A stretch of DNA of 64,000 bases from a virus (taxonomy: Duplodnaviria; Heunggongvirae; Uroviricota; Caudoviricetes). Location: the IMG/VR virus record IMGVR_UViG_3300025009_000058, one strand, 5' to 3'. This document shows positions 1,734 to 50,300 of the stretch, in pieces (within the stretch, counting starts at the first letter, position 1; each line of letters starts with the position of its first letter). The position numbers were made by a program, and so were the translations under genes. The notes under the pieces were generated by a model. It was not told where the DNA came from. It was given only the letters and a program-made list of their open reading frames with translations, and did no database searches.

Positions 1734-1980
1734 GTTTAACTAATTCCTTTTTATTAATGGCTTTAGCTCCACGAAAAATGCAAGTATTTCTATCTGCTTC
1801 AGAAATATTAAAGTGAAACTCAACTATTTTTGTTGTTCTTTCCGGATTCACCCAGTGTGCTTTATCAGGTTCTAACCCTAAAATCTCTGCAGCAAATATT
1901 ACTAATTCTTCTGCAGACTTATCAGAGAATAGATGGGCATGAGGTTTAACAAGACCATGAATATCAGTTACATATATCAT
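1699..1980 (-). CDS. DUF4031-family protein
   Basis: 93 aa. The N-terminus MIYVTDIHGLVKPHAHLFSD...ELVIFAAEILGL resembles the DUF4031 family often found in phages. The start overlaps the upstream gene's stop. Confidence 0.5.
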   Translation of the reverse strand: MIYVTDIHGLVKPHAHLFSDKSAEELVIFAAEILGLEPDKAHWVNPERTTKIVEFHFNISEADRNTCIFRGAKAINKKELVKHDYSCTKVTTI

Positions 1981-2588
1981 TTTTTATTCCCTACTATATC
2001 TAGTAGATTAATTTGCCAACCCATGAGTAAAATTAAATTGGTTAGTGCAATTGCATCTGATAAAGCTCCATGAGGCCGATGAGTTATCTTCATAGTAGAA
2101 GTCCAAGTTGATAATTGATTGTTTACTAGTTTATTCCTTGATTCTCTACATAATTTTAATGTGTCAATATAAACATGATTAGGAGCAGTAGCACCATAAA
2201 ATTCTAGAAAAGCATGTTCAAAAGCGGCACTGTGTGCATATATTGGATGTTCTCCAAGTACTTCTTTCACTTCTTTTATGACTTCTTTGGTATTAAATGA
2301 TGGAAATCCTTTCAATAAATCAACTGATAAGCCATTTCTTTCAGCAGCTTTATCTGAGATGCTTTTAATAGAATAAAACTTATGATATACATCTTTTACT
2401 TGATTACCTATAACTTTTATAATTGCTATTTCAGCTACTTCACCTCCTACATTAGGACTCAAATTAGTAGTTTCTAAATCAACAACATTAAATGTGGGTA
2501 TGTTATGCATATCTTCCTCTTCTATGGGTTCTTCTATTAGTTTTATTAAGTCTTTCTGTAAAATCAATAATCGACTTACTTCACTCAT
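1977..2588 (-). CDS. DnaQ-like DEDDh 3'-5' exonuclease
   Basis: 203 aa. Exo I VVDLETTNL (D-x-E), Exo II YAHSAAFEHAFL and Exo III HGALSDAIALTNL (H-x4-D) are present. An ATGA start/stop overlap couples it to the upstream TerL-ATPase ORF. Confidence 0.7.
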   Translation of the reverse strand: MSEVSRLLILQKDLIKLIEEPIEEEDMHNIPTFNVVDLETTNLSPNVGGEVAEIAIIKVIGNQVKDVYHKFYSIKSISDKAAERNGLSVDLLKGFPSFNTKEVIKEVKEVLGEHPIYAHSAAFEHAFLEFYGATAPNHVYIDTLKLCRESRNKLVNNQLSTWTSTMKITHRPHGALSDAIALTNLILLMGWQINLLDIVGNKK

Positions 2589-3694
2589 TAACCTACCTTT
2601 AAGTACTTAGCAACTTTTGAAAGGTATTCAGCTTCCATTGACACAATTGGAAAGTTTGCAGCATCAGCAGCATCAAGTAATTCTATGACTTTTGGATCAG
2701 ATATAATCTCTGCATTATCAGTATCAATATAAAAATTATCTTTTTTATGGAGTTTTCCATCTTCATCATAACCTCCATTAAATTCAGGGTAAAATTTATG
2801 CCCTTTTGCTTCCCACATGGGTCTTCTTCTGTAAAAGATTCCAGAATCTGGAATAGTACCCTTTTCTTTTGCTTCCTTTACAATTTTATCATGCAATTCC
2901 ATCTGTTTATGCATAAAATCATCGGGAAAGTTTGGAGAACTAATCATACAGATCATACCTGGTAATTTACCATGTTTCATAAATCTTGAAGTCATTCTGT
3001 TGTAAATAGCATTATACATCTCTTCACAAGCATCAAAACTCCCATCAACAGTCTTATTAGAATCCTCAGTAACTTCCAAAAAAGCAGCTTCATCGATAAT
3101 ACTCCCATATAAGTTATAGCCCAATGCTGAAAGAGCAGAGCTTGTACCAGGGAAAATTGTAGTATTGTTTCTTGAGATCCGGATCTCAGTTGTAAATCTT
3201 GAATCAATAGGAAAATAGTCTTTATTAAATCCACACTGGAAGCGATTAAAGACTTCAGTGAATGTTACCTTTTTAGCTTGTTTCTCTGTGCGGTTCATAT
3301 TAATCAATGCTATAACTGAGCTTGGAGCTAAATCAAAGTAATCTTGTGGGTTATCAATCAAGGACAATTCAAACCATTGAAGCCAAGTAATAATAGAAGA
3401 CTTAGTTGTCTTACCAGAGCCGATTCCTTCCATGAAAATAACTAAGTTTACCTGTCTTTTCTTTCTCTCTTCAAACAAATCTACTATATCTTGTAAAACA
3501 CCATCATAAACTTTATCTCCAAAACCTAAAAAGTATGGATCTTTTATCAAAGTTTCAATAGGGATCTGTGCAAACTCATTAGCAATACGTTGATTCCACT
3601 CAAAAACAGCTCCAGTGGTCTTTTTATTATAATCATCTATATAGTCTTGTGCGAACTTATATAAATAATCTTGTGATTCATCTTTTTTTGCCAT
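2588..3694 (-). CDS. terL: Large terminase, ATPase-domain ORF
   Basis: 368 aa. Walker A GIGSGKTT, Walker B LYGSIIDEAAF and the coupling motif MICMISSP are typical of TerL ATPases. The ORF terminates before any nuclease domain. Confidence 0.8.
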   Translation of the reverse strand: MAKKDESQDYLYKFAQDYIDDYNKKTTGAVFEWNQRIANEFAQIPIETLIKDPYFLGFGDKVYDGVLQDIVDLFEERKKRQVNLVIFMEGIGSGKTTKSSIITWLQWFELSLIDNPQDYFDLAPSSVIALINMNRTEKQAKKVTFTEVFNRFQCGFNKDYFPIDSRFTTEIRISRNNTTIFPGTSSALSALGYNLYGSIIDEAAFLEVTEDSNKTVDGSFDACEEMYNAIYNRMTSRFMKHGKLPGMICMISSPNFPDDFMHKQMELHDKIVKEAKEKGTIPDSGIFYRRRPMWEAKGHKFYPEFNGGYDEDGKLHKKDNFYIDTDNAEIISDPKVIELLDAADAANFPIVSMEAEYLSKVAKYLKVG

Positions 3695-4612: not shown

Positions 4613-5389
4613 TTACTCCACAGGAATAGCAGCTTCAACTTTTTTCAAAAATGAATTTTTCATTTGGTCTGGATCTATTTCTCCAGAATGTATTCTATCT
4701 TTATTTCTAAACGGAATGATGACTTGATTCAGAATATCGTTCATGAGGTTCTTAGCCTCTGGGCCGCGAATTCTTCCAGCAATGATCTCAAATATCTGTT
4801 GGACAAATTCTCTGACGGAGGTTGCATCGAGACGCAATTCTCGCTGTATTTTGTTTTTCAGACCCTTGGCTTTCACCAAATCAAGTGTGATACCTCTGAC
4901 AGTCTCAATTTGGTCGAGAGTCATTTCTTCACCCATTGTCATAATATAGTTTTGCAAAGCATATAGCATTTTGATCTCTGTGTCAACAGACATGAGATCT
5001 TTCTCCTCCAGCTCCTCTGCATGTTCCAATAATTCTGACATCCGTGCTGGGAGCCTGTGTGCCGTTGAAAGCTGAATATTATACAATGACCGTCGACCGT
5101 GATTCGAACATTTTCCGAATCCTTTGTGATCTGATCCCCATCCTGCAGTCAAAAGGCATGGACCATATGTTGTTCTATGGCCACAGATTTTTCTTAGTTT
5201 AACTCCTTCTGGCGATATCAACCAATGAGTGCTCTCAGCTGTATCTTCTTCAACCCGATATCCTTGGAGTTTTTTAAGTTTCCGTATGCCACTAATCTGC
5301 CTGCTAACAGTCTTTATAAATTGTCCAGGGTCATCTTTGGTCTTTGATTGTTCTGAGAGAGATCCGAGTCTTATCTGTTGTTTTGCCAT
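4613..5389 (-). CDS. Zinc-ribbon protein, possibly the small terminase subunit by position
   Basis: 258 aa with a CGHRTTYGPC...CSNHG motif and a C-terminal coiled-coil-like region. The gene is markedly GC-richer (about 45%) than its flanks (about 27%). It lies upstream of terL in the same orientation. Confidence 0.5.
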   Translation of the reverse strand: MAKQQIRLGSLSEQSKTKDDPGQFIKTVSRQISGIRKLKKLQGYRVEEDTAESTHWLISPEGVKLRKICGHRTTYGPCLLTAGWGSDHKGFGKCSNHGRRSLYNIQLSTAHRLPARMSELLEHAEELEEKDLMSVDTEIKMLYALQNYIMTMGEEMTLDQIETVRGITLDLVKAKGLKNKIQRELRLDATSVREFVQQIFEIIAGRIRGPEAKNLMNDILNQVIIPFRNKDRIHSGEIDPDQMKNSFLKKVEAAIPVE

Positions 5390-5766
5390 CTAGGATAGAT
5401 CACTTATGTTTTTACGGAAAATTAAAATGGCTTTATTTAGCCTATCCCATCTATATATGCTAAGAACTCAATCAAAGCACAGCGATACAATTTTATTATA
5501 ATTTGGGAATATGGAGATATTTGTTAGCGTATATTTTATCAATTATATAGTCCTGCTTACACTGGATTAGTTTTATGAAAATCCAAAATTAAAGGATATT
5601 CAATATCTCAGTATAATTTCAAATTGGAAGCCGCTTGCAAGTTGAGTGAAGATTTTTTAGGCATGTGAAAGACGGATGAGTCGGGTAAGTTCAAAAATTT
5701 TTTAAGAAATTTTTTGGAAGATGACTAGACTTTGAAATCGTTGCGAGTTGTTAATAGGTGGAATAA

Positions 5767-5858
5767 TTGGATGATTGGATGATTGGATATTGGCTAATCA
5801 GCTTTAGTGGCTAATCAGCTTTAGTGGCTAATCAGCTTTAGTGGCTAACCGGCTATTC
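5767..5858. repeat. Tandem repeats: (TGGATGAT)x2+TGGATAT, then a 17-mer TGGCTAATCAGCTTTAG x3 plus a degenerate fourth copy
   Basis: Read directly: ggatgattggatgattggatattggctaatcagctttagtggctaatcagctttagtggctaatcagctttagtggctaaccggctattc. It lies in a 750-bp noncoding region next to the putative terS. Confidence 0.85.
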
Positions 5859-5898
5859 CGGATACGGGCTTCTCATTGATAAAAAAAGTTGTCAATTG

Positions 5899-5917
5899 AG
5901 TTGTATTATAGTTGTCA
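5899..5917 (+). promoter_or_regulatory. Short-spacer variant of the conserved promoter-like motif, plus orientation
   Basis: gtattatagttgtcaagtg resembles GTATTATATTTGTTTTGTCAA with a shorter middle. It overlaps the palindrome TTGTCAagTGACAA and lies upstream of the plus-strand island. Confidence 0.25.
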
Positions 5918-6137
5918 AGTGACAAAGACGGAAACATGTCCACAGTAGAAATGCTTATTTTCAAGGTTATGGTGTATAGACAAGGCGACGCCCGTCATAT
6001 ATCTTTGAAACTTTTTTTGAGTTGTAATAGTTTGAGTCTTGATAGTTCACAAAATATATATTATTTATTTTTACAAAGTATTGATTTTTGTTTATACATT
6101 CATTAAGTTTCATTTAGTAATTAATTGAGATATAAAC

Positions 6138-6392
6138 ATGGAAACAATAAAAAAAGAATTTAGAATAGTTACTGCAATTGGAAACAAAATAAGATACTTT
6201 GAATCTAAAGTAACCTATGGGAGATACAAGGGTTGGACTATAGTTTTAAATCTTAATAAAACAGAAGCAACTTTAATTCATCAAAATCAAGTTTTTAGGG
6301 TTCTAATTGATGAGGTTGCAACAGCAAAATTAACATCAGGAAATAAAAGAAATAATAATCAAGACTTAAACAATCACATATTAAGAGGTTAA
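6138..6392 (+). CDS. Hypothetical protein (plus-strand island)
   Basis: 84-aa ORF, the first gene of a short plus-strand island inside the minus-strand arm. Confidence 0.45.
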   Translation: METIKKEFRIVTAIGNKIRYFESKVTYGRYKGWTIVLNLNKTEATLIHQNQVFRVLIDEVATAKLTSGNKRNNNQDLNNHILRG

Positions 6393-6518
6393 AATGAAAA
6401 TAGTTGAAGATAAGCAAGAAAATGGAGTAGGTTTATTTTTAGCAATATTAAGCGGTATTTTTTGGTTATTGGGGTGGGCATGGTATTTAAATAATGAATC
6501 ATTTAATTTTATATTTTA
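6393..6518 (+). CDS. Small membrane peptide (41 aa, single TM)
   Basis: Not in the ORF track (shorter than 60 aa). RBS AAGAGG precedes the ATG at 6393. Translation MKIVEDKQENGVGLFLAILSGIFWLLGWAWYLNNESFNFIF*. Confidence 0.35.
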
Positions 6519-6529
6519 AGGGTAATAGC

Positions 6530-6703
6530 ATGGCAAATCAAATTAATAAAAAGAAAAGTTATGTATCGGCTAATATGGTAAGGCATTCCATAGCTTTAAA
6601 TGAACAAAAAAAACCAAGTCCAATTTTTCAAACTGAGGTTAAATATAATGGTTTGAAACATGACTTAAAAAATGACATTAAACAACAAATTTATAAGTTT
6701 TAG
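6530..6703 (+). CDS. Hypothetical protein
   Basis: The track ORF 6494..6703 is trimmed to the internal Met (MANQINKK..). The RBS is weak. Confidence 0.3.
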   Translation: MANQINKKKSYVSANMVRHSIALNEQKKPSPIFQTEVKYNGLKHDLKNDIKQQIYKF

Positions 6704-6838
6704 ACTTAAGATATAACTTTATAAAAAGCAACTTTATAAAAAAATAACTTGACTTTAGTAAAAAAAGAAATTATTTTTAAACAGCTTAATTAAGGTAATT
6801 AAGCTAAAATAAAAACCAAATCAAATAGGAGTAATATT

Positions 6839-7357
6839 ATGTCAGAGCAAAAATTCAGTGATTCCGTAAACATTAACTCACGGACTTCCCAATCTTCAGA
6901 AGCTCAAAAAGCCCTTGAAGTCCCCTTTTCAACTGATGAGAGTAAGAATTTAAAAACTCACCTGCAAGCTGGAAACATTTACTTAGGCAGTTACTCAGGA
7001 ATTGGTTTAAAAAACCATTCATCAAAAATTGAGCCTTTTTCAAGTTTTAGGCACTATTGCCAAAAAAGTAAAAATTTGGGTATCTCTCAAAATCAAGTGG
7101 TAAAAGATGGCGGTTTAAACTTTGAAGCTATTCAAGAAATTGCTAACTCAAAGAAGTTTGTTTCTATTGATGGTGATATTTGCGCAGTTTCATTCGTTGA
7201 AAAAGGAAACGTTTTACTTTTCAGCTTAACCGGATTGAAAAAACGATTTTCAAAAGTTGAAACTGTTCAAAGTAAAATTGAAACCAAAGCCGAAACCAAA
7301 GCCAAAACCGAAGCTAAAACCGAAGTTAAAACCGAAGTTAAAACCGAAGCTAAGTAA
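6839..7357 (+). CDS. Hypothetical protein with a C-terminal (K/E)T(E/K)(A/V) tandem repeat
   Basis: 172 aa. A strong RBS AGGAG lies 7 nt upstream. The C-terminus is ETKAETKAKTEAKTEVKTEVKTEAK. An intrinsic terminator follows. Confidence 0.6.
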   Translation: MSEQKFSDSVNINSRTSQSSEAQKALEVPFSTDESKNLKTHLQAGNIYLGSYSGIGLKNHSSKIEPFSSFRHYCQKSKNLGISQNQVVKDGGLNFEAIQEIANSKKFVSIDGDICAVSFVEKGNVLLFSLTGLKKRFSKVETVQSKIETKAETKAKTEAKTEVKTEVKTEAK

Positions 7358-7364
7358 TAAAAAG

Positions 7365-7390
7365 AAAAGCGGACTAACAATCCGCTTTTC
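7365..7390 (+). terminator. Rho-independent terminator
   Basis: aaaagcgga-ctaacaa-tccgctttt: a 9-bp stem followed by a T tract, directly after the stop of 6839..7357. Confidence 0.7.
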
Positions 7391-7404
7391 GATGTACCTA
7401 AAAA

Positions 7405-7430
7405 AGATATTAAGGTCTTAATGTAGTTTG
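7405..7430. repeat. 26-bp direct repeat, copy 1, with an internal palindrome ATTAAGgtCTTAAT
   Basis: agatattaaggtcttaatgtagtttg. A second copy lies at 7529-7554 (one mismatch). Confidence 0.8.
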
Positions 7431-7528
7431 CGACTCCCGTGAAATTGCTTTAGATTTAAATACTTTATACTTATAGCGAATCCCGTGGAAATCGGACATT
7501 AGTATCTTATTATCCTATATGGCTAATC

Positions 7529-7554
7529 CGATATTAAGGTCTTAATATAGTTTG
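7529..7554. repeat. 26-bp direct repeat, copy 2
   Basis: cgatattaaggtcttaatatagtttg. The region between the copies also holds the imperfect repeats gactcccgtgaaattg and gaatcccgtggaaatcg. Confidence 0.8.
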
Positions 7555-7805
7555 TTGTTCATGTTGTTTCAATTGCTTTGTATATTATATACATTACAAT
7601 GTAGGGAATTGTGTATTGACAAGTGTAAAGTGGGTGGTGAATAGATAAGTATTATATTTGGTTATATAAGGTGAAATGTAAAAATTTTGTGAGAAGTATT
7701 GGGTGAGTTGTGTAATAGGTAAAATCGTAAAAGCCATATCTTATCCTTATATTATAACTACCCACTTCCATGGTGTTCGCAGGCTTATCTCTGTCCATTT
7801 GCGCG

Positions 7806-7841
7806 CATAAAAAATCCCGGATGGTTAATATGATCCGGGAT
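7806..7841 (-). terminator. Rho-independent terminator for the minus-strand gene 7876..8220
   Basis: Hairpin atcccggat-ggttaatat-gatccggga. It is followed on the minus strand by TTTTTT (plus aaaaaa at 7809-7813), 35 nt after the stop. Confidence 0.65.
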
Positions 7842-7875
7842 CAAGTCAATCATAAATAGTTAAGGAGGCTACTAA

Positions 7876-8220
7876 TTAATATCCGAGAACATATCCGGCT
7901 TTTCCATTATGACGAATAACTCTATTAGCCAATGTAGATAAAGCCATGTTCAGTTTCGATCTTTTTAATTGCAACGATTTGTTTTCTTTTGCTTCTTGAA
8001 TTGATATACCGGTGATAGCTTTAAAGTCTGCAATACTCATACCAGCAGCTTTAGCCAACGCGTAGTTATTAAAACCAATCCGGTGAAGAGCTTGAACAAA
8101 ATTCATTTTATAAAGAGGTTTTGTTCTCTTAAAGCCCTTTTTGTTCGGCGATCCTGTTTCTGATATAACGATCATTTTTAATTTGTTAATGTTATTTTGA
8201 AGTGTAGTTCTAGTAGCCAT
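7876..8220 (-). CDS. Putative DNA-binding protein (HTH-like)
   Basis: The track ORF is trimmed to the internal Met (MATRTTLQNN...), so the conserved promoter motif at 8248-8269 lies upstream rather than inside the gene. The basic region KGFKRTKPLYKMNFVQALHRIGFNNYALAKAAGMS looks HTH-like. Confidence 0.5.
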   Translation of the reverse strand: MATRTTLQNNINKLKMIVISETGSPNKKGFKRTKPLYKMNFVQALHRIGFNNYALAKAAGMSIADFKAITGISIQEAKENKSLQLKRSKLNMALSTLANRVIRHNGKAGYVLGY

Positions 8221-9618: not shown

Positions 9619-10143
9619 TTAGTCTTCAATAATATAAAGGTTCATTTCATAATTTGGATTCAATTTTTTAATTTCTTCTTCAACCCTATTATGCCTTTCT
9701 TTATCCTTCTTTGATATTGTATATTTAAGCTTCAATGGGATGAATTTTGAAGAACGGATTGTTTGACTTGTATCATCAAGAGTTTTTAAATAATGATTTA
9801 TAACAATTTTTGAAATGAGGATTGGTTTTTGAGCAATTAGTGATTCAATTTTTTTATTAAAGAAGCCAAATTCCATACCATATTTGGTTATTAACTCAAC
9901 AAGGAGAGGATTGTTTTTGGCTGCAATAGCTTGATTCAATTCAAGAACAAAAGGCTTTACCCTATTTGATTCTTTATACATATTCAATAATTTTGTTCTT
10001 TGAGCATCTTTAATTTTTTGAGCTTCTTCCGCTTCAGTTAAGTATGTTTTTTGTTTAGGAAGGGTAGAACAAAAGCATTTTGTATTATGATGTACTTTTA
10101 TTCTTACCTGCTTCAAATTGATTGTATCAAAATATTGTTGCAT
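9619..10143 (-). CDS. Hypothetical protein
   Basis: Trimmed to the internal Met (MQQYFDT..). This Met has the strong RBS AAAGGAGG and leaves the promoter motif at 10179-10200 upstream of the gene. Confidence 0.5.
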   Translation of the reverse strand: MQQYFDTINLKQVRIKVHHNTKCFCSTLPKQKTYLTEAEEAQKIKDAQRTKLLNMYKESNRVKPFVLELNQAIAAKNNPLLVELITKYGMEFGFFNKKIESLIAQKPILISKIVINHYLKTLDDTSQTIRSSKFIPLKLKYTISKKDKERHNRVEEEIKKLNPNYEMNLYIIED

Positions 10144-10178
10144 TACGTTGCCTCCTTTTGAATTATTTTTTATTTTAA

Positions 10179-10200
10179 TTGACAATTCAAAAATAAATAC
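10179..10200 (-). promoter_or_regulatory. Promoter-like motif copy (ttgacaattcaaaaataaatac)
   Basis: 36 nt upstream of the 10143 start. Confidence 0.45.
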
Positions 10201-10416
10201 TTTTATCAATATTATCAACCATTTTTTAACTTTATTAACATATATAACAGAGCAATCTAAGAGCACACCTCTGCCCCAAAAAGATTATTATAATTATCAG
10301 TTATGCCTGCTTGTCCAGACGTCTGAAAGTTATATAACTTTCTGGGACATTAGTGTATCATCCATATGGGTGAGATAGCTGACATCTTTGCCCAGATGAT
10401 AGCGCGCAATAAAATG

Positions 10417-10728
10417 TTACTGTATGGAGCTTATAATAAAAATATCTTCATTATTTTGAGAGATCCAAACCATTGTTTCATCATCAAATGTGATGTTAAA
10501 ATACTCTTTCAATCCTTCAACTTCTTGTTTGGACATTAGATTATCATAACCAGCATTAATAGATACCATATGTAGAGTTGTATTACCTGGATCATCCGTT
10601 AGCTGTGATAAATCATAATGAGTAAATTTTGCTTTAATATTAGGTTTTATAGTATGATAATATTCTTCAATAGCATCGGAGTAAAGATGTTTTTCTGCAT
10701 TAATTGTAAATGGCATCTGGTACCTCAA
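10417..10728 (-). CDS. Hypothetical protein
   Basis: 103 aa. SD GAGGT lies 8 nt before the ATG. Confidence 0.5.
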   Translation of the reverse strand: MRYQMPFTINAEKHLYSDAIEEYYHTIKPNIKAKFTHYDLSQLTDDPGNTTLHMVSINAGYDNLMSKQEVEGLKEYFNITFDDETMVWISQNNEDIFIISSIQ

Positions 10729-10741
10729 TTTTATTATTTAA

Positions 10742-10763
10742 TTGACAAAACAAATATAATACA
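10742..10763 (-). promoter_or_regulatory. Promoter-like motif copy (ttgacaaaacaaatataataca)
   Basis: 14 nt upstream of the 10728 start. Confidence 0.6.
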
Positions 10764-10769
10764 GCTATC

Positions 10770-12060
10770 TAATCCTATATCATTAATCAGCGAGTCCAGT
10801 GGACGAAGTAAGTCGCAGCTATCATATCTTATATTCTGGGCTTCTTTCCTCAACTTATGTATTATATCCCATAGTTTGTGCCTATTAGCCGGTCAAAGAT
10901 GGAGATCTGGGCTAAGTATTGTATATTGGCAACAATGGTATCTTTTTACCAAGGTTTGCCAACGACTACAAAAGAAAGCCCGACGACTCCAAAGTATGCC
11001 AAGGATACAATTGGAATTTGCAATAGGGGCACATTTGCTATCTGGTGTGGTTATTGAGAGCTGTTCGTTGGATATCCTTGAATAATCTACGGGAGCCATT
11101 TTGGATAGATAAAGTTACTTATATTGAAAAGAAAAACAAACTAGGGGCTCATTGGCTAACCGGCTTGAAGCTGGAACATCGTTTCAAGTTACTGGAACAG
11201 TGGAACATTTTGTTCCATCTATCAATTACAAGATGTTTCAAGTTGCTGGAACATCTATTCCAGCCTAATGGCGGCTGCACGGAACTGACAGGTCGCTTTT
11301 ATTGAATATTAATACATAGTAACATAGCCGGTTAGCCATTTAAAACTGGTTAAGCTTATAGCCATTTTATCCGTCCCAGCCGGTTAAATTTACATTTTTC
11401 CTTTTCTTTTCCATTACATTCATTATCCTACTATTATTCCTATTGTATGTTAAAAGATAGAGTTTTCTTTGAAAAGATATTTTATTTTATCCATTCAATA
11501 CATTACTCTTAGCATATTTTCCTTATATATTTATGTTAATGTATGTATTTGGAATGCTATTGTTTTTAGTTTAAGTCTTATAATGAATAGTATTTATTAT
11601 ATAAAGAATACAACTTATAAGGGCACCAAACTTTTAACGTACACCCCCAAAGTAATGAGTACTATAATATAAATTTGATAGGTGGCGGGTGAGAGGACGG
11701 ACGGAGGCTGTGAAGTGTCCAGATGTGGAGATGATTGTATTTTGGATATTTTGGAAAATTTATTGAATTGGACTATCTGTGTGTGGAGAATGGGATATGG
11801 AGTCAATATTTTGAAAAGAGAGTCAAATGGTATCTGTGGGACCATCCCAAGACCAGATGATCAGAACCGACCAAGATGTCAGGTCTGTGGAATACTGCGT
11901 TGTGAAAGTCAGATTGTCATTTTGGTGATCTTTCTGAATATCGTTCAAATGTTTAGTGAGAAGATCTGTGACCAACGGGGCATTCTTGGAGGATATGATT
12001 CTGGATTGATGAGCTCTCAGTGAAGATGATTTTGATGTAGGCACTATCTGTTTTTTGGTT
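10770..12060. other. GC-elevated, ORF-poor noncoding island with iteron-like repeats
   Basis: No convincing ORF on either strand; track ORFs here carry the DNA repeats. CTGGAACA occurs four times at 11170-11262, with a palindrome tggaacattttgttcca at about 11205. There are repeats of c(c/t)ggtta(a/g)..agccatttt at 11300-11390 and an AT-rich tract at 11400-11680. Confidence 0.5.
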
Positions 12061-12280
12061 TTTATGCCAATTTTATAGATAATTACAGCGAAAATTGAAC
12101 AAAGTATTGACCAAGTCATAACAAACAAAATAATATCTATTAATGTCATCATTTATCCTTTTTATTAATTTCCATTACCTTTTTGAATCTCGAGCTTCTC
12201 ATTTTCATTAATTTATACTTCAAGTGCATTGATGTCACTTAACCTTTGTTTAAACTCTTCTATAGACATCACGTAATACT

Positions 12281-12589
12281 TCACAATTCATCTCCATTTT
12301 TAAAAGGTAATTCATCTTCAATAAATTTAATATAATTCTTTCTCAAATTTTTCAATTTGGAAATAATAGCAGATTCTAATTCAAGGTCAGGTAAAAGATC
12401 TTCAGAAATTGTTATTATGTATCTTGGTTCATGTGGTAACAAACTTTTTCTCAATGAAAGATTAGTAACTTCAATTGAATCAGAATCTTTCAACAACAAT
12501 GCATCAATTTCATCTATCTTGTTTTGAAGCTGTGATATAATCTTAATCTTTTTTTGAAATTCTTGCAAAGTCAATTTAATTTGTCCCAT
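12281..12589 (-). CDS. Hypothetical protein
   Basis: 102-aa ORF. Confidence 0.45.
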   Translation of the reverse strand: MGQIKLTLQEFQKKIKIISQLQNKIDEIDALLLKDSDSIEVTNLSLRKSLLPHEPRYIITISEDLLPDLELESAIISKLKNLRKNYIKFIEDELPFKNGDEL

Positions 12590-12824
12590 TTACGTCTTCC
12601 TTATATGAATAATGTATACAAATAGTTGTTGTGATTGGTGCACCACCATAAAGAGAATGTGATTGTGAGGTTGATAATAGAACTTTAATTGTTAAATCAT
12701 TCTTAGTCTTTCTCAAATGTTCCATAAACAAATTGGCTTCTGTTTCAATCCTTTTAGTATTATCAATACTCTCAAAAATAGCAATTTCATTATAAGTTTT
12801 CATCTTTAACCTCAAGCTTATCAA
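12576..12824 (-). CDS. Hypothetical protein
   Basis: 82-aa ORF. Confidence 0.4.
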   Translation of the reverse strand: MISLRLKMKTYNEIAIFESIDNTKRIETEANLFMEHLRKTKNDLTIKVLLSTSQSHSLYGGAPITTTICIHYSYKEDVNGTN

Positions 12825-13296
12825 TCAATTCTTGAATTCCTTGCAAAGCAGATGGTAGATATATTCGGTCAATAACTTTGTATTCTGACTCCAAGTTATT
12901 GTATTCAATTATATAAGACCGAATATTCAAAAGATTTTTCATCAAACTATTATCTAGTATTGGAAAAGTGAGCTCTCCAACAATAACCTCTTGATATTGT
13001 TTCTTCAATTTGAGAAGGCTATCTACAAGAACAGTTTTTGAAAGAATGTCTTCAATGAAAGCGTCTGATAATGTTATCGTAGTTTGATCATCAATATCCT
13101 GGTCGTTTGCCAATCTAATTTTGAAGCCATCAATTCGAATAGGGCCTTTATGAGCTAAGATCTCATCTATTTTATCAATATTTTCTCTGGTCTCTTTAAC
13201 ACAATCAGAGCGACTCATTAATTCATCTTCAGATATTTTTATTACTGCTTTCATTTTGTACCTCAATTTATTTATTTCTATATTTATCTGCGACAT
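12790..13296 (-). CDS. Hypothetical protein
   Basis: 168-aa ORF. Confidence 0.5.
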   Translation of the reverse strand: MSQINIEINKLRYKMKAVIKISEDELMSRSDCVKETRENIDKIDEILAHKGPIRIDGFKIRLANDQDIDDQTTITLSDAFIEDILSKTVLVDSLLKLKKQYQEVIVGELTFPILDNSLMKNLLNIRSYIIEYNNLESEYKVIDRIYLPSALQGIQELIDKLEVKDENL

Positions 13297-31364: not shown

Positions 31365-31382
31365 GTAAATCCTTTTTATTTG

Positions 31383-31456
31383 CGGAGGCGTTAGGACTCG
31401 AACCTAAATCCCATATCATTTCTGATACGATAATTACCATTATTACAACATCTCCG
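31383..31456 (-). tRNA. tRNA-like element, possibly a tRNA pseudogene or a noncanonical tRNA
   Basis: The minus-strand sequence folds with a canonical T-arm (TTAGG-TTCGAGT-CCTAA). It has a 7-8 bp acceptor stem (GGAGATG / CGCCTCC with one A-C mismatch), a D-arm with GG in the loop and a total length of 73 nt. The anticodon arm is TATC-AGAAAT-GATA, a 6-nt loop that lacks U33. No tRNA search program could be run. Confidence 0.4.
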
Positions 31457-32628: not shown

Positions 32629-33534
32629 CTATTTTTTATTTAATTTACTGAAAGGTGAGGAAATGCCTAGTAATTTCAACTTAGATTCAAACTCATCTAA
32701 TTCTCTTGAAACCTTAATATAAGAATTATCAACATACGACAACCAACCAAATTCTGTGGCCAATTCAAAAATATCTTTTGGAGTATATTTCTCAGCAATG
32801 ATCATTTGTATTAAGTTATAGTCTTTCTGGAAAAGTTTTAAAGAATATAACTCATACTCTTCAAATGCAGACCATGATATTGGGAACTCTTCTTTAACAA
32901 ATTCTGCAATAGCCAAAGCATACTGATGGATCTCATATTGTGCATGCGAGTCCAATCGAAGTCTTAAAAAGTTAAATAAGTTATGCAAATCAATCTTCCA
33001 ATAAGCTTCTGTATAAGTTGATAATGGAAGATCTTTTCTTGCTTGTTCTTTTGCAACTCCAGCTTCAATTCGTTCATTATATATTCTTGTAGCGATAGCT
33101 TGAAAATTTTTCTCATCTTTTGAAAGATTATGGGCTAATATAGGGTTTATATCTTCAAGTTTTCCAGCAGAACCTTGTTTATTGTCTTGAGCTTGTACTC
33201 TCCACTGATTTTGTGCAGTTTCTTGTTTCTCATCAATTGCTAATGAATATCTGGTTGAATATTCATTTACATTTGCAGTTCTATGTCTAATCCATTGACG
33301 CCAACAATCCATAGGAACTTTAACATGAAATTTCATTTCAACCATTTCAAATGGTGATGTGTGCCCATGTCTATAAAGATATTTTATTAAACCTTTGTCT
33401 TCAGAGACTTTTTTAGTACCAGCACCATATGAAACTCTTGCTGCTTGAACAATTGAGTCATCAGAGCCCATTACATCAACAAGGCGTACAAATCCCTTAT
33501 CTAAAACATTAATTTTTCTACTCCACTGTTCCAT
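32629..33534 (-). CDS. thyX: Flavin-dependent thymidylate synthase ThyX
   Basis: The ThyX signature RHRTANVNEYSTRY (RHR-x7-S) is present, along with HGHTSPFEMV and an N-terminal VLDKGFVRLVDVMGSD. Confidence 0.85.
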   Translation of the reverse strand: MEQWSRKINVLDKGFVRLVDVMGSDDSIVQAARVSYGAGTKKVSEDKGLIKYLYRHGHTSPFEMVEMKFHVKVPMDCWRQWIRHRTANVNEYSTRYSLAIDEKQETAQNQWRVQAQDNKQGSAGKLEDINPILAHNLSKDEKNFQAIATRIYNERIEAGVAKEQARKDLPLSTYTEAYWKIDLHNLFNFLRLRLDSHAQYEIHQYALAIAEFVKEEFPISWSAFEEYELYSLKLFQKDYNLIQMIIAEKYTPKDIFELATEFGWLSYVDNSYIKVSRELDEFESKLKLLGISSPFSKLNKK

Positions 33535-33815
33535 TATTTTTTTCCTTTAAATATTAATATGGTATTATCGATGATTAACAATAAACCCCAGAGGATAAAC
33601 ATAGAACCAAAAGAATAAGCAATAATATCAGTAGGCCATTCACTGACAGGTTTTAAACTAAATAAGTTTATTACTATCTGTAAGCCAATTGAAAAAATAA
33701 ATACACCAAGAGAAATGAGAAATATACCTGACATAATTGATGATTTCACTATTACCTCTTTTAATAATAAAAAATAATGGCCGGTATTGCTACCAGCCAT
33801 AAATGAATAATGCAA
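33534..33815 (-). CDS. Small two-TM membrane protein
   Basis: 93 aa with two hydrophobic helices. Confidence 0.45.
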   Translation of the reverse strand: MHYSFMAGSNTGHYFLLLKEVIVKSSIMSGIFLISLGVFIFSIGLQIVINLFSLKPVSEWPTDIIAYSFGSMFILWGLLLIIDNTILIFKGKK

Positions 33816-33920
33816 AAAGAATCACGTGTTTGTCTTGGAGTCCGTTATGTAAGCGGTTTTAAAGACGTTTAGAGTGACACTACGTGTTCATCACTTTTGA
33901 CCAATTCGAATTGGTCAAAC

Positions 33921-34688
33921 TTAAAATATATTACGATCTATCATATATGATCTATAAGCATGTAAACTATTAATAAGAACAATAAGTTTACCGGGTTCAA
34001 TTGGCACTCCATCAACTAGTTGATCATTAATTCTTTTAGTTACCCAATCATTTAATTTTCCAGCAAGGTACATGTCATTGATAAAATGCGTGTAAAAATC
34101 ACAACTCCTCATGTGATAAAACATAATCAATTTATTATCACGAATCAACCAAGAATAATCTAAAGAACAAGAAACCCGTCCAGTTTGTTCATTCATGTCT
34201 TGGTCAAGATCACTTGAATAGATATTTAATACTTGACGTCTTGAATTCCTATCTAATACAAGTTGATTAATAATACGAAGCAGAAGATTATTACGGAAGA
34301 AGCGCTCATTGTAAGTATATTCAAAACGACCATTAACCATAATTGGTTCCCAAACATACCGACGTAATTTCCAAGCTTCACCAGGATTGGGACTAATAGC
34401 TGATTCATCTACTCTTTCAAGAAACTCAACATTGGCCCATGCAAGAACGTTATCTGGTTGTTCTATTGAATCTTTATAGATAAAAGCATAAGCCTTTTTA
34501 ACTTCAGCTAATGGGTCTAGTATTGAGAATGTTTCTCCTTGAATTTCTTTAGTAGTATACTTCTCAACAAGTTCAGGTGTGTCAAGTTTTTTGTTCTGAA
34601 ATGACTTAAGTCTAACCTCTTGACCCATTTCGAATAAGTTTCTTTGTGTTTCTTTCACTGTCTCGTAAAGATTTTTGTAAATCCTCAT
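33921..34688 (-). CDS. T4 gp42-like deoxycytidylate 5-hydroxymethylase (ThyA-family)
   Basis: 255 aa. The C-terminal half aligns to ThyA/dCMP-hydroxymethylase motifs: SRRQVLNIYS, the catalytic Cys in RVSCSLDYSWLIRD, MRSCDF, FINDMY (Asp at the ThyA Asn177 / T4 gp42 Asp179 position) and GKLIVLINSLHAY. The alignment to T4 gp42 is from memory. Confidence 0.6.
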   Translation of the reverse strand: MRIYKNLYETVKETQRNLFEMGQEVRLKSFQNKKLDTPELVEKYTTKEIQGETFSILDPLAEVKKAYAFIYKDSIEQPDNVLAWANVEFLERVDESAISPNPGEAWKLRRYVWEPIMVNGRFEYTYNERFFRNNLLLRIINQLVLDRNSRRQVLNIYSSDLDQDMNEQTGRVSCSLDYSWLIRDNKLIMFYHMRSCDFYTHFINDMYLAGKLNDWVTKRINDQLVDGVPIEPGKLIVLINSLHAYRSYMIDRNIF

Positions 34689-41402: not shown

Positions 41403-41440
41403 TTGTTTGGCTCCTTTTAGTGGTTGAAATTAATTTATTA

Positions 41441-41464
41441 TTTGAGACAACAAATATATTACAT
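41441..41464 (-). promoter_or_regulatory. Promoter-like motif copy (ttgagacaacaaatatattacatc)
   Basis: 39 nt upstream of the 41402 start. Confidence 0.45.
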
Positions 41465-41698
41465 CTTTTATTTTTTGATGTGAAAAATTTTTAGAACCAT
41501 ACTTTATTGATAAAATATAAAATGTATCTTATTAGTGAAATAATTGATAATCAAAATATTCTAATAAATAAACTTCTTTCCAATGCGCTCGCCCGTAGTT
41601 GCTTTTATATTTTATATCAGAATGTTAATAATATAAATGTTAAGATCTTGTTTACCATAATTTAATTCAAATTTAATTTAAAAACACCCGTTGAACCG

Positions 41699-41728
41699 TT
41701 GACTTCATTAGTGAATATGTCATATAAC
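41699..41728 (+). promoter_or_regulatory. Candidate host sigma-70-type promoter (TTGACT-N18-TATAAC)
   Basis: Lies in the divergent intergenic region. It is bracketed by the 8-bp inverted repeat ttgaaccg (41691) / cggttcaa (41766) and the palindrome gtcaaaag..cttgtgtgttttgac. Confidence 0.35.
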
Positions 41729-41950
41729 AAGTCAAAAGTAACTTGTGTGTTTTGACTTTTTCTGGCGGTTCAAAAATCAATCTGTAAAAAGTTTAAAACT
41801 CTCAATTTGAAGAACACCGAGTTCGAAAATCCTAATATATTATATATAAATAAGGTTAATAATTTAAAACTAAAATAAGTTAAATAGCTTTTTAGTTAAA
41901 TATATTGGAATTTTCCGCAACTCTGAGTATACTTTATTTTATTGAGATTA

Positions 41951-43724: not shown

Positions 43725-45070
43725 TTGAAGATTTTTTATCCGAGCAATTAGCAGTTGGTTTAATGCTTAATAGCCGAGAAGCTGCATTCAAAGGAATTGG
43801 TGAATTAGATGATGGAGATTTTGCAAATCCAAATTTTATCGTAGTATTTAGAGCAATTAGAAAAGTTATTGAGCAGCAAAAAGAAGTTGATATATTCTCA
43901 GTAAATTCAATGCTTGAGAATATGGGAAAACCTTTGAGTCTTGAAGAACTATTCAATATTGAAGACAAATTCTATGTTGAAGAGAAGTTTGATTCTATTA
44001 TTGAGATTTTACATGATAAGAAGAACAGAAGAATTACAGATCAAAAATTAAAAGAAGTATCAAAAAGGCTTAATAATGATAATACTTCTTTTGATACTAT
44101 TATAAGAGATATTGATTCAGTTTTTGATACAAAGACTTATTCATCAAATGTAGTCTCAGGTACAAACTATCTTGAGTTTAGAGCTCAACAGGATAAAGAA
44201 AAAAGAGAAAGAAAATGGATTCTTACAGGCTTTGAAGAAATTGATAATATTTTAACCTATAAAATATCAAGGGGGGAAATATCAGTAATTGCTGCAAGAC
44301 CCTCAAATGGTAAATCTGCCCTAAAAACTAATCTAATTAAAAATATGTGTGAGCAAGGAGTAGGTGTAGTAAACTATGCTCTTGAGCAAACAATGGAAGT
44401 TGAATCTGATAGACTAGAATCTTTAGTCAGTGGGATACCTGGTCAATTTATTGTAGATTGCCACATATGGGAAGATACAGATTTTAGAAAGATAAAATTA
44501 ATGGAAGCAAGAGAAAAGATTGCTACTTGGAATTACCATTTAATTGAAGGTATAAGTAAATCTCTCGCTGAGATAAAAAGTGAATTAAGAATGCTAAAGA
44601 GAAAAGGTATTGAAATTGCATTCTTTGATTTATTTGATAGAATAAAAGATGTTGTAAATAGTACATCAAATAAAGCTCAACAAGTAACAAAGTGTTTAAC
44701 TGAGATGCTTGCTATTGCAAAAGAATTAAATATACATATTTGTGTTATAGTACAATTAAATAGAGATCTTACTAAAAGAAAGAGTATGATTCCACAACTA
44801 TCTGATTTAAAAGATTCTGGAGCATATGAAGAAGTTGCAAGAACAGTATTCTTTTTACATTATCCAAAAGCTCATGATAGAAAATTAGTAGAATCAAACA
44901 TTACATGGATCATTGCAAAACAAAATAATGGGCCATTATTTGAGATGGATATTCCTTTCCAAGAAGACATAGGAAAATTTATTTCAAAAGATCCAAGTAA
45001 TCAAGGTATTAAGAAAAAAGGTCTAAGTCAACCATCTTCTAATATTGAGACTCAAAATGATAGAAAATGA
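43721..45070 (+). CDS. DnaB-like replicative DNA helicase
   Basis: 449 aa with a DnaB N-terminal domain. RecA-like core with Walker A IAARPSNGKSALKTNLI and QLNRDL. Confidence 0.8.
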   Translation: MIEDFLSEQLAVGLMLNSREAAFKGIGELDDGDFANPNFIVVFRAIRKVIEQQKEVDIFSVNSMLENMGKPLSLEELFNIEDKFYVEEKFDSIIEILHDKKNRRITDQKLKEVSKRLNNDNTSFDTIIRDIDSVFDTKTYSSNVVSGTNYLEFRAQQDKEKRERKWILTGFEEIDNILTYKISRGEISVIAARPSNGKSALKTNLIKNMCEQGVGVVNYALEQTMEVESDRLESLVSGIPGQFIVDCHIWEDTDFRKIKLMEAREKIATWNYHLIEGISKSLAEIKSELRMLKRKGIEIAFFDLFDRIKDVVNSTSNKAQQVTKCLTEMLAIAKELNIHICVIVQLNRDLTKRKSMIPQLSDLKDSGAYEEVARTVFFLHYPKAHDRKLVESNITWIIAKQNNGPLFEMDIPFQEDIGKFISKDPSNQGIKKKGLSQPSSNIETQNDRK

Positions 45071-45716
45071 GGAATTAGTTAAATTTTGTGCAAAATATCA
45101 AGAAGGTAAAGTAACTGATAAAGAATTATGTTACTACTTTTATAAACTAAAAAGATCTTGGTATTTAAAGTATTATGAGGATAAATCAGGAATATTATTA
45201 AAAGAAGATTTTGAATCTATTGCCTATTTTGGTTATATAAAAGCATTAAAAACATATAATCCATTAAAAAATAACTCTCCACACGCATGGATATATATGC
45301 TTGTAAAACAAGCAGTGGTTAAAGAAATTATTTCAATTTTTAAAAAATCAGGTATGGTTATAAATTCTCATATGGACCCAAATTTAGAAATTGAAAATTA
45401 TGATATTGAGATTGAAGTTCCAATGGATTTTGATATTAGGGTTTATGTATCAGATGGTACACTTATAAAATTTATAAAAGAAATACAAGGAGTTTTTAGA
45501 GGGAAGTCTGGTCAAAAAATTGGTAATATCTTTCAATTAAAACTTATGTTTCCAAACATGAAAAGAGAAACTATCGCAAAAATCATTGGTTATAGTAGAC
45601 GAAATGGTATTGCAAAACCTATGAAAAAGATAAGAGCAATGTTTCATAATGTTGATATTAATACTTCTTCTATAAATTCTAAATTTATAGATTATATCAC
45701 TAAGTCATTATCATGA
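45057..45716 (+). CDS. Sigma-70 family RNA polymerase sigma factor (phage-encoded)
   Basis: Region 2-like AYFGYIKALKTYNPLKNNSPHAWIYMLVKQAV (compare ..GLMKAVEKFDP..FSTYATWWIRQAI). The C-terminal HTH is region 4-like (RETIAKIIGYSRRNGIAKPMKKIRAMF). The start is placed at MIENEEL. Confidence 0.55.
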   Translation: MIENEELVKFCAKYQEGKVTDKELCYYFYKLKRSWYLKYYEDKSGILLKEDFESIAYFGYIKALKTYNPLKNNSPHAWIYMLVKQAVVKEIISIFKKSGMVINSHMDPNLEIENYDIEIEVPMDFDIRVYVSDGTLIKFIKEIQGVFRGKSGQKIGNIFQLKLMFPNMKRETIAKIIGYSRRNGIAKPMKKIRAMFHNVDINTSSINSKFIDYITKSLS

Positions 45717-49423: not shown

Positions 49424-49645
49424 ATGTTAAGAACTGTCAAAAGATTTATGTATGGTGGAAGTTCAGGAATTTGTGGAAAGGTATCTAATGAAGAATTTTG
49501 CAGTAGTATGAAAACAGATTATATGTATGAATTAAGTTGTGGACATACATATGTAGAATCATTTAAAGGTAAAGAAGGAAAAATTCTTGATAATGATTCA
49601 TTAGTCTTATGTGAAAAATGTGATAAATTACCAAACCAGGAGTAG
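49424..49645 (+). CDS. Small Cys-rich protein
   Basis: 73 aa, C..C...C.H.....C.KC. Confidence 0.4.
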   Translation: MLRTVKRFMYGGSSGICGKVSNEEFCSSMKTDYMYELSCGHTYVESFKGKEGKILDNDSLVLCEKCDKLPNQE

Positions 49646-49649
49646 TAAA

Positions 49650-50300
49650 ATGAACGTATATGATTTTCCAGATCAATTTAATGAAGAACACTTATCAAAG
49701 ATATATGAACTTATTTTTGATAGACAAGAGCAATTAGCTCAAAAATATACACCTCTTGAACACCAGAATGGCTTAAGATGGACTCAAGATATGCCAGTCA
49801 ATATTCATGATGGAAAAGGCCAAGCACAATTGAAAGATATGGCTTGGAGAACAATGGAGGAGATTGGAGAATCACTTGAAGCATGGTTTGATGATAGTGA
49901 GAATGTTGAAACTCAAAATGAGCAACTTTTACATGCAAAAGAAGAACTTGCAGATGGCTTACATTTCTTAACAGAATTGGGTATACTTTCAGGTATAAAA
50001 CATACTGATATTAATATTTCACTTGAAAAAGTAGTACATCAAGCTAAAGAGGTTGTAAGTATTGATGAAGCTGTTACTGATTTTGTTTTGAGACTTGGTA
50101 TTACAATGAATTGTTTGAAGAATAAACCTTGGAAATGCTCTCAATATCCAACAGATGAAGCAAAATTCAAGAAACACTATTTATTAGCATATGAGGCTTA
50201 TATTGTTCTTATGCTTGAAATAATGGAACCACTTGAAATTCTTAATCTTTACTTTAGAAAATCAAACGTAAACCAGTTTAGAATTGAATCTAAATATTAG
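49650..50300 (+). CDS. MazG-like / all-alpha NTP pyrophosphohydrolase (dCTPase/dUTPase candidate)
   Basis: Two EExxE-type motifs (MEEIGESLEAW and EELADGLHFL). The start is placed at MNVYDF after RBS AGGAG. Confidence 0.5.
   Translation: MNVYDFPDQFNEEHLSKIYELIFDRQEQLAQKYTPLEHQNGLRWTQDMPVNIHDGKGQAQLKDMAWRTMEEIGESLEAWFDDSENVETQNEQLLHAKEELADGLHFLTELGILSGIKHTDINISLEKVVHQAKEVVSIDEAVTDFVLRLGITMNCLKNKPWKCSQYPTDEAKFKKHYLLAYEAYIVLMLEIMEPLEILNLYFRKSNVNQFRIESKY

Follow-up and report, generated by a model that had tools for sequence, protein, structure and literature searches.

The viral DNA of IMG/VR record IMGVR_UViG_3300025009_000058 (Caudoviricetes) was analyzed over a stretch of 64,000 nt, here termed the window, with positions counted from its first letter. 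At 10717-12280, the window contains an interval of 1,564 bp that represents its longest noncoding gap by a codon-usage criterion. The interval is a real, composite, and repeat-rich region without a convincing gene, in which two GC-elevated blocks surround an AT-rich spacer. The tentatively preferred reading is that of a plus-strand structured noncoding RNA (ncRNA) locus in the left block and a small independent transcription unit in the right block; a cis-acting DNA site is nearly as likely, and the two readings are not mutually exclusive. The features of this island are as follows.

10735-10763, minus strand: early-promoter-like motif GTATTATATTTGTTTTGTCAATT, with 0 mismatches to the shared 21-nt core; serves the 99-aa gene at 10716
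10858-10867, plus strand: TGTATTATAT, the 5' half of the promoter motif, pointing into the structured block; candidate RNA promoter
10900-10991, no strand assigned: domain 1, with five helices in a 92-nt interrupted palindrome or hairpin; pairs nearly all Watson-Crick
11034-11113, plus strand: domain 2, an 80-nt G-U-rich hairpin predicted on the plus strand only; weakly significant
11126-11411, plus strand: domain 3, a predicted 285-nt multibranch structure enclosing four hairpins
11153-11165, plus strand: 13-mer TGGCTAACCGGCT, left arm of a perfect inverted pair
11171-11253, plus strand: TGGAACA cluster of five copies, four direct and one inverted
11326-11338, minus strand: 13-mer TGGCTAACCGGCT, right arm of the perfect inverted pair
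11344-11389, plus strand: two degenerate 13-mers, AACTGGTTAAGCT and CAGCCGGTTAAAT
11390-11660, no strand assigned: AT-rich spacer with a pyrimidine-rich start on the plus strand and a 21-nt near-palindrome at 11577-11621
11670-11677, plus strand: TAAATTTG box, matching the promoter core TAnnTTTG and the sole plus-strand match in the island; putative promoter
11681-11708, plus strand: G-rich block ggtggcgggtgagaggacggacggaggc, with GGAGG (11703-11707) 7 nt before a GTG at 11715
11715-12023, plus strand: 102-codon Cys-, Gly-, and Arg-rich open reading frame (ORF), of 113 codons if read from a GTG at 11682; GenBank hypothetical protein HLD98136.1
11823-12152, minus strand: 109-aa ORF overlapping the plus-strand ORF; its first 30 residues are hydrophobic, resemble a membrane helix, and lie in the AT-rich part
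12025-12280, no strand assigned: AT-rich tail, which holds the start of the 109-aa ORF

The window, part of an AT-rich phage genome, has a GC content of ∼0.29. The local GC rise described in the initial annotation was borne out, with values of 0.38 to 0.42 across 10800-11400 and 11600-12000 compared to 0.25 to 0.31 in the flanks, and the G-rich block reported there was located at 11681-11708. The AT-rich segment that the same annotation noted is present (∼11390-11660) but is not unusual for this genome; its GC content of 0.215 in 11400-11599 compares to 0.19 to 0.21 in other intergenic stretches. The GC skew is positive over the GC-elevated block, as it is for the coding strands of all gene blocks; in the four profile windows spanning 11600-12099, it amounts to +0.25 to +0.42.

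Phage-like coding is absent from the interval. A codon log-likelihood score was trained on long ORFs of the window (42 ORFs, or all those of ≥600 nt for the mapping of gaps) and gives 0.35 ± 0.08 per codon for the 42 phage genes and 0.35 and 0.32 for the two flanking genes, compared to -0.28 to +0.08 for all ORFs inside the interval. A metagenome gene caller called no gene within 10717-12280, and neither the ORFs and six-frame translations searched against Pfam nor the ORFs searched against PHROGs gave a match. The initial statement that no plausible ORF exists here is too strong, as ORFs of 155, 113, and 109 aa are present, one of them annotated (HLD98136.1). An alternative genetic code or stop-codon recoding was rejected, with all three stops occurring in all six frames. 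A decayed gene was rejected as well, as the six-frame translation with stops masked gives no domain; the decayed acquired segment considered at first likewise finds no support, with no Pfam or PHROGs matches and no blastn matches to phages or plasmids. A miniature inverted-repeat transposable element, an inverton, or an invertible segment was rejected on the basis of the missing target duplication, the missing recombinase, and the same orientation in all three assemblies.

The left block (10880-11415) is noncoding in all tests, with stops in every frame, a score of -0.18 for the longest frame, and a purine frequency of 0.44 at codon position 1. In comparison to 100 dinucleotide shuffles, the predicted fold of 10880-11400 shows a z score of -5.7 on the plus strand and -3.7 on the minus strand, while the z scores of seven phage pieces used as controls lie between +1.3 and -3.6. 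When G-U pairs are forbidden, the strands become equal (z of -3.6 on the plus strand and -4.3 on the minus strand), which attributes the advantage of the plus strand to wobble pairs. The z scores of the subdomains on the plus and minus strands are -5.7 and -7.0 for domain 1 (tested as 10895-10995), -2.8 and +0.9 for domain 2, and -7.5 and -4.7 for domain 3 (tested as 11120-11415), with helix pair probabilities of 0.79 to 0.99. Domain 3 is closed by stacked helices of 10 bp (GAAAAGAAAA/UUUUCUUUUC), 5 bp, and a perfect 13 bp. The long structured RNA envisaged in the initial annotation therefore fits the left 530 nt, with z scores of -5.7 to -7.5 and a plus-strand promoter-like element upstream, but neither the right 400 nt, where the fold of 11640-12080 shows no excess structure on either strand (z of +0.9 and +0.4), nor any Rfam family.

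The perfect 13-nt inverted pair, absent from the initial annotation, leaves 160 nt between its arms and encloses the TGGAACA cluster. Of the 13 copies of TGGAACA in 64 kb, 5 lie within 82 bp here, at irregular spacings of 21, 9, and 46 nt plus the inverted copy, and the cluster includes two 19-nt direct repeats, GTTTCAAGTTRCTGGAACA. Four copies of CTGGAACA had been reported; three were recovered (11171, 11192, and 11246), but the fourth reads GTGGAACA. Similarly, the hairpin TGGAACA-TTT-TGTTCCA described as a perfect palindrome is present at 11201-11217 but consists of inverted 7-bp arms separated by 3 nt. The further repeats of the initial annotation were confirmed as ccggttagcc at 11327, ctggttaagc at 11345, and ccggttaaa at 11379. 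More degenerate copies of the 13-mer are found at 10886-10898 on the plus strand and 10783-10791 on the minus strand.

The 13-mer is shared with a second gene-free and GC-elevated island at 5390-6137, 5.3 kb away from the inverted pair, which is associated with the following features.

4613-5389, minus strand: conserved 258-aa gene, downstream of the array and five genes upstream of the gene for the large terminase (TerL)
5792-5854, plus strand: tandem array with a 17-bp period, three units of GGCTAATCAGCT and one of GGCTAACCGGCT, the last unit being the island 13-mer

Eight of the 10 GCYGRTTAR sites of the window lie inside the two islands, as do all six sites matching GGCTAACCGGCT at ≤2 mismatches, compared to 0.43 expected. 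In the window, the array has four units; two other assemblies have three and are otherwise identical to the window over 11.7 and 20.3 kb. The second island lies between the 258-aa gene on the minus strand and a small plus-strand operon. In addition to the array, with its unit GGCTAATCAGCTTTAGT, it contains a tandem of GGATGATT, a G-rich stretch with a GC skew of up to +0.47, and a plus-strand promoter-like copy at 5893-5915.

The array is positioned 400 to 465 nt upstream of the 258-aa gene, whose product may be the protein that binds the 13-mer. Among 5.8 billion proteins, the 258-aa protein has one relative, with 63% identity (L004 494-1294), encoded on a 2.9-kb contig that ends inside a repeat region. 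On this contig, two copies of a related repeat, AGATGGTTAAGA, precede the orthologous gene at the corresponding position, which suggests that sites of the 13-mer type evolve together with the adjacent protein. The 258-aa gene is itself GC elevated (0.41 to 0.45, with 0.35 at third codon positions [GC3]). Its relative is so likewise, and the high GC content is therefore a property of this gene and not of a recent transfer. The protein shows a conserved Cys/His cluster (C69, H71, C78, C94, and H97), and one gene caller had shortened the gene to 126 aa. No family match was found for the protein, including the small-terminase (TerS) families, and its AlphaFold model was unusable (predicted local distance difference test [pLDDT] of 42). 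A metagenome scan for the relative's own motif as an inverted pair, as predicted from the window, gave 25 matches, all of them unrelated chance occurrences, and the 13-mer inverted pair of the window is absent from the IMG/VR and GTDB genomes.

A third gene-free region (518 bp) lies between convergent genes at 7358-7875, besides those of 748 bp (5390-6137) and 1,564 bp (10717-12280). It contains the 13-mer variant TGGCTAATCCGAT at 7521, a plus-strand promoter core, GTATTATATTTG, at 7650, 25-nt direct repeats (7406 and 7530), and a 34-nt inverted repeat (7628-7661/7734-7767). A hairpin at 7815-7842 resembles a minus-strand terminator of the gene ending at 7876, and a small plus-strand RNA of ∼150 nt is possible in this region. 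An Rfam scan of 5300-8000 gave only chance-level matches.

Putative signals for transcription are provided by the motif GTATTATATTTGTTTTGTCAATT, which is nearly invariant over 21 to 23 nt. It occurs at ∼12 sites in the window, 20 to 45 nt before start codons and each time followed by a Shine-Dalgarno sequence, for example, at 8246, 10740, 16342, 20167, and 35952 on the minus strand and at 52366 on the plus strand. These positions point to an early promoter of the phage, perhaps read by its own sigma-like proteins, namely, a 223-aa protein with sigma-70 region 2 (45045-45716) and a 75-aa region-4 protein. The minus-strand copy at 10735-10763 forms the left edge of the untranslated region as the presumed promoter of the 99-aa gene at 10716, which carries GAGGT 5 nt ahead of its ATG. 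The half-motif TGTATTATAT is found in 6 copies in 64 kb, compared to 0.7 expected; 4 of these are true promoters, and the copy at 10858 is the only one on the plus strand. It stands back to back with the minus-strand promoter at a distance of 95 bp, and the two make up a divergent promoter zone at 10735-10867. The promoter motif was also used as bait in IMG/VR and retrieved four contigs, all unrelated.

From these elements, a two-part organization can be proposed. The left two-thirds of the interval would be a plus-strand ncRNA locus that runs antisense to the genes around it. Transcription would begin just to the right of the promoter-like element at 10858-10867 and yield an RNA of ∼530 nt (∼10880-11411) with three domains, the last of which would be closed by ∼28 bp of stacked helices including the perfect 13-bp stem TGGCTAACCGGCT/AGCCGGTTAGCCA, with the TGGAACA copies placed in hairpins inside. 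Transcription as such, its strand, the RNA ends, and a regulatory role are deduced here from promoter-like and fold signals. The need of stable helices for G and C would explain the high GC content within an AT-rich genome. The 13-mer recurs as an array in front of a conserved gene that neighbors the terminase genes, and this recurrence probably ties the RNA locus to that promoter region, and the tie could consist of one DNA-binding protein or of base pairing. Past the AT-rich spacer, the right third would form a separate plus-strand unit resembling a moron, in which the TAAATTTG box and a G-rich leader carrying GGAGG precede a Cys-rich ORF whose composition is foreign.

This reading is favored because a GC content of 0.40 is held over ∼600 nt while the spacers of the genome show 0.19 to 0.28, and because of the extreme fold stability, the wobble-dependent gain on the plus strand, the promoter-like element, and the precedent of phage ICP1 and its satellite PLE. 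Several observations weigh against it. Domain 1 shows no preference for the plus strand and folds slightly better on the minus strand, and the strongest helices, which are perfect Watson-Crick inverted repeats without G-U pairs, are as stable on one strand as on the other. The predicted fold contains no GNRA or UNCG loops, a search of the locus for intrinsic terminators found none, and only the 5' half of the promoter motif is conserved at 10858. The right block lacks excess structure on both strands. An Rfam search had been named initially as a check, and no family was matched: Rfam 15, including GOLLD, ROOL, group I and II introns, HEARO, tmRNA, and RNase P, gave no match at an E value of ≤1 for 10000-13000 and none at the gathering score for the whole window. 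No homologue of the island or of the flanking genes was found in any collection searched. Finally, the 13-mer is asymmetric, occurs in both orientations, forms a copy-variable array in another intergenic region, and has a related motif in the relative, a pattern as in a protein-binding DNA site.

A more far-reaching version of the ncRNA reading is unlikely as a whole. It proposes an undescribed phage RNA of ∼530 nt that is antisense to early genes and contains a 160-nt core, located on or excised from a stalk of ∼28 bp, whose stem matches the array. If this were true, the RNA or a shared protein would couple early transcription to the onset of packaging-gene expression, and the RNA would represent a new family beside GOLLD, ROOL, and the ICP1 ncRNA.

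The alternative that survives best, nearly as likely as the ncRNA locus, is a cis-acting DNA locus in which the 13-mer AGCYGRTTAGCCA and TGGAACA would bind one or two phage proteins, the structure being a by-product of sites in two orientations. Pairing of remote sites is known from the iterons of R6K and P1, from pac synapsis by the T4 terminase, and from the IRC/IRD repeats of T5; here, a protein bound at the inverted pair and at the array 5.3 kb away may loop or pair the two loci. Such sites could serve in an origin or copy control, in packaging recognition, or in the control of plus-strand promoters in all three gene-free regions. The concentration of GGCTAACCGGCT-like and GCYGRTTAR sites in the islands argues for this alternative, as do the array of three or four units depending on the assembly, the two AGATGGTTAAGA copies at the equivalent upstream position in the relative with 63% identity, and the strand symmetry of the fold signal once G-U pairs are forbidden. 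Further support comes from 13-mer-like sites near the promoter-like elements at 5893, 7650, and 10858 and from the adjoining AT-rich tract. The three untranslated repeat regions of T5, which have inverted repeats in common (10.1101/866236), provide a parallel. Short sites, however, leave ∼600 nt with a GC content of 0.40 unexplained in a genome of 29% GC, and the rise in plus-strand fold stability through G-U pairs also counts against this alternative. Among the flanking proteins, searches revealed no DNA-binding domain and no match to Rep, initiator, ParB, integrase, or TerS families; as mentioned above, the 258-aa protein gave an unusable model. The island also shows no regular iteron phasing and no enrichment of DnaA boxes.

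The replication origin is the subcase of the DNA site that the initial annotation had put forward and is rather improbable here. Its evidence, repeats beside AT-rich DNA, is weak, and sequence alone cannot show an origin. The proposed iteron architecture did not hold up, as the TGGAACA 7-mers are irregularly spaced and Tandem Repeats Finder detected only two weak two-copy arrays in AT-rich DNA of 10717-12280; the true 17-bp tandem array is confined to the other island (5792-5854). DnaA boxes (TTATCCACA, ≤1 mismatch) occur at 18 sites in the window compared to 23 expected, one of them in the island. DnaB and DnaG are encoded at 43.7 to 63 kb, and the cumulative GC skew has its minimum at ∼42 kb, ∼30 kb from the interval. 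A divergent intergenic region at 41403-41950 is AT-rich (GC content of 0.235), coincides with the switch in gene orientation and the GC-skew minimum, and adjoins the replication module. In terms of position, it is a more conventional candidate for an origin, but no iterons turned up in a search beside the DnaB module, which thus provided no better candidate.

Unrecognized or decaying coding DNA is likewise improbable for the interval. Here, the GC-rich blocks would be foreign small genes (morons) or their remnants, with the 102- or 113-aa ORF on the plus strand and the 109-aa ORF on the minus strand as candidates. The 113-codon frame (11682-12023) spans the whole right block (11680-12025), a length reached on this strand in 0.1% of block shuffles (P = 0.046 if either strand is allowed), and GGAGG precedes its internal GTG by 7 nt. 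Three pipelines called this ORF, as 77, 102, and 113 aa, and its purine frequency of 0.64 at codon position 1 is gene-like. Against this, its codon score is 0.03 compared to 0.35 ± 0.08, its GC3 is 0.41 compared to 0.15 to 0.25 in phage genes, and G shows the same frequency at the first two codon positions, without three-base periodicity. A search of 1.8 billion cluster representatives with the 113-aa ORF gave no homologue, the sole nonself match being a translated tandem repeat, an artifact, and the AlphaFold model of the 102-aa ORF was uninformative (pLDDT of 41). The 102-codon ORF is possibly a foreign-looking small gene of the moron type or a G-rich untranslated transcript. An apparent ATCTGTG periodicity in the right block was rejected as not significant, its copies lying in frame as Ile-Cys codons. 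The 109-aa ORF has AAGGA before its ATG and the hydrophobic N terminus, with a codon score of +0.16 over the first 30 codons, but the score falls to -0.23 over the remainder. Its length is ordinary in shuffles, it is absent from the protein collection, and as a whole it is probably not a gene. Moreover, a coding explanation could apply to the right 400 nt only, as every frame of the left block is interrupted by stops, and no domain emerges with stops masked.

Least probable is a tolerated spacer without specific function, with repeats arisen from local duplication and slippage: the 17-bp array does show that slippage is active, and conservation between samples is uninformative in a near-clonal population, but neutral DNA should not keep a GC content of 0.40 under strong AT pressure (intergenic DNA of 0.19 to 0.28), chance falls far short of explaining z scores of -6 to -7.5, the perfect 13-nt pair, and the occurrence of three identical 13-mers in two islands, and this is the largest gap in 64 kb of a kind of genome that is tightly packed.

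The phage that carries this locus is of the lytic type, with a genome of ∼121 kb. The same sequence is present in many samples as contigs of 121 to 123.5 kb, and two full-length contigs are rotated relative to one another by 12.3 kb, which indicates a circular assembly of ∼121.4 kb. From ∼40.4 kb down to 7.9 kb, the window contains small minus-strand genes, mostly without relatives. The genes recognized in the window encode DnaB, a DnaG-type primase, an SF2 helicase, an ATP-dependent ligase, a 5'-3' exonuclease, and ThyX, as well as two ThyA-like proteins, a dUTPase, a C5 methyltransferase, glycosyl/methyltransferase fusions, and the sigma-like proteins. GenBank files the contig within a metagenome-assembled genome of a "Candidatus Nanoarchaeia" member (HLD98135.1 and HLD98136.1); this label is probably a binning error, because the replication and sigma genes are of the bacterial type. 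A Bacteroidota host, hinted at by the TAnnTTTG box, was considered doubtful, as the genes have clear Shine-Dalgarno sequences.

The TerL gene (2588-3694, minus strand) encodes a protein with ∼32% identity to the annotated TerL of Vibrio and Rhizobium phages. At 1977-3694 on the minus strand, TerL appears as a 368-aa ATPase-only protein followed by a separate 203-aa protein, which matches RNase_T (DEDD exonuclease) and not the usual terminase nuclease domain. Three stretches (32629-34688, 49611-54538, and 57215-61203) contain ThyX, the two divergent ThyA-like proteins, dUTPase_2, a thymidylate-kinase-like protein, and the C5 cytosine methyltransferase, together with two large glycosyltransferases, one of them fused to a methyltransferase. 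This set of nucleotide, methyltransferase, and glycosyltransferase genes suggests hypermodified DNA bases. At 31382-31455 on the minus strand, ARAGORN predicts a tRNA that has a four-base anticodon (gaaa) and to which no amino acid is assigned; it is probably a false positive, since Rfam at the gathering score shows no tRNA in the window.

Other assemblies of the phage (L001, L037, and L034) are identical in sequence over 11.7 to 20.3 kb, with 0 mismatches across 20 kb, and one short contig shows three single-nucleotide polymorphisms, none of them inside the GC-rich blocks. The sampled population is thus near-clonal, and conservation across samples is uninformative. The Joint Genome Institute contig L034 is chimeric past window position 12330, where it runs into an unrelated surface-protein-like gene. 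Scans of IMG/VR with the flanking proteins found no relatives, and the only result of a scan with TerL was a 4.2-kb fragment of this phage. Against 5.8 billion proteins, each flanking protein matches itself only. No match was obtained by blastn at "distant" sensitivity with the region against 50,697 phage records and 72,556 plasmids, nor by megablast with 20 kb of the phage. The lineage is nearly isolated in public data, with almost no early gene having a relative among the 5.8 billion proteins. The locus is a clean, well-delimited example within an otherwise unstudied phage lineage; as all evidence for it derives from one sequence, it is to be regarded as a lead and not as a discovery.

The interval belongs to a known general kind, the long ORF-less loci of large phages, which are ncRNA genes or cis-acting sites. 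In ICP1, the most abundant transcript is an ncRNA of ∼800 nt from a 1-kb ORF-less gap between gp139 and gp140 (PMC7567579), and in the PLE satellite, the top transcript is an RNA from the segment between inverted repeats whose sequence is antisense to gene leaders (Barth et al. 2020, PMC7567579). The present phage is similar in having an ORF-less gap of ∼1 kb or more in a genome of ∼120 kb. The PLE RNA, located between inverted repeats, has short complementarity upstream of genes; correspondingly, the 13-nt pair brackets 160 nt, and the 13-mer recurs ahead of a different gene. In contrast to ICP1 and PLE, where transcription is documented by RNA-seq, it is predicted here, and blastn shows no similarity to phage records. 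Unlike in PLE, the 13-mers pair with each other in the predicted fold and are not obviously free for pairing in trans.

GOLLD and ROOL are large structured RNAs that, according to the work of Harris and Breaker (2018) as cited in PMC7567579, are often found in phages or prophages. The proposed RNA would resemble them as a phage-borne member of the 500- to 800-nt class in GC-rich intergenic DNA of an AT-rich genome. It differs in the lack of a covariance-model match at an E value of ≤1, of a nearby tRNA cluster, and of GNRA-type loops.

The terminal repeat of T5 contains untranslated repeat regions of 629, 188, and ∼1,200 bp, including the injection stop signal (Davison, bioRxiv 10.1101/866236). 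Both phages have a genome of ∼121 kb in which a span of a few kilobases contains three untranslated regions (748, 518, and 1,564 bp in the present case), along with nested direct and inverted repeats, palindromes, and one repeat common to two regions, here the 13-mer of the first and third. The paired DnaA boxes that are a hallmark of T5 are absent from the present phage. Furthermore, its TerL best matches those of Vibrio and Rhizobium siphophages (∼32%) and is not T5-like, and its contigs are rotations of a circular assembly.

Iteron-type origins with remote iteron clusters include lambda ori, incC and incA of P1, and the alpha, beta, and gamma origins of R6K. Compared with the general description of these systems, the locus is similar in its asymmetric 13- to 17-bp repeated site, in the tandem cluster with single or inverted copies kilobases away, and in the AT-rich tract. 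It differs in the absence of an identifiable initiator gene and of DnaA boxes, in its distance from the replication genes, and in the lack of helical phasing, the period being 17 bp in the second island and irregular in this one. Recognition sites of the small terminase are located upstream of terS, such as the R sites of lambda cosB and pacL/pacR of SPP1. The island at 5390-6137 shares with these the repeated asymmetric sites ahead of the gene that opens the packaging and structural operon, and in a relative these sites seem to covary with the adjacent gene; however, the 258-aa protein matches no TerS family, and the island at 10717-12280 is 5.3 kb from that gene. Morons are inserted between phage genes, from which they deviate in composition, and are transcribed as independent units. 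The right block resembles them in having its own promoter-like box, Shine-Dalgarno sequence, and ORF, a deviant GC content, and an orientation opposite to that of its neighbors, but it has no convincing terminator and no homologue, and its coding status is a prediction.

If the locus encodes an RNA, this would be a new large phage RNA, and if it is a binding platform, it would mark the site of a key DNA transaction of the phage. It offers testable parts for both, namely, the promoter-like element, the three fold domains, the shared 13-mer, and the polymorphic tandem array. Large lytic phages repeatedly carry such gene-free stretches, which give rise to abundant RNAs, as in ICP1 and with GOLLD and ROOL, or provide sites for injection, replication, or packaging, as in T5.

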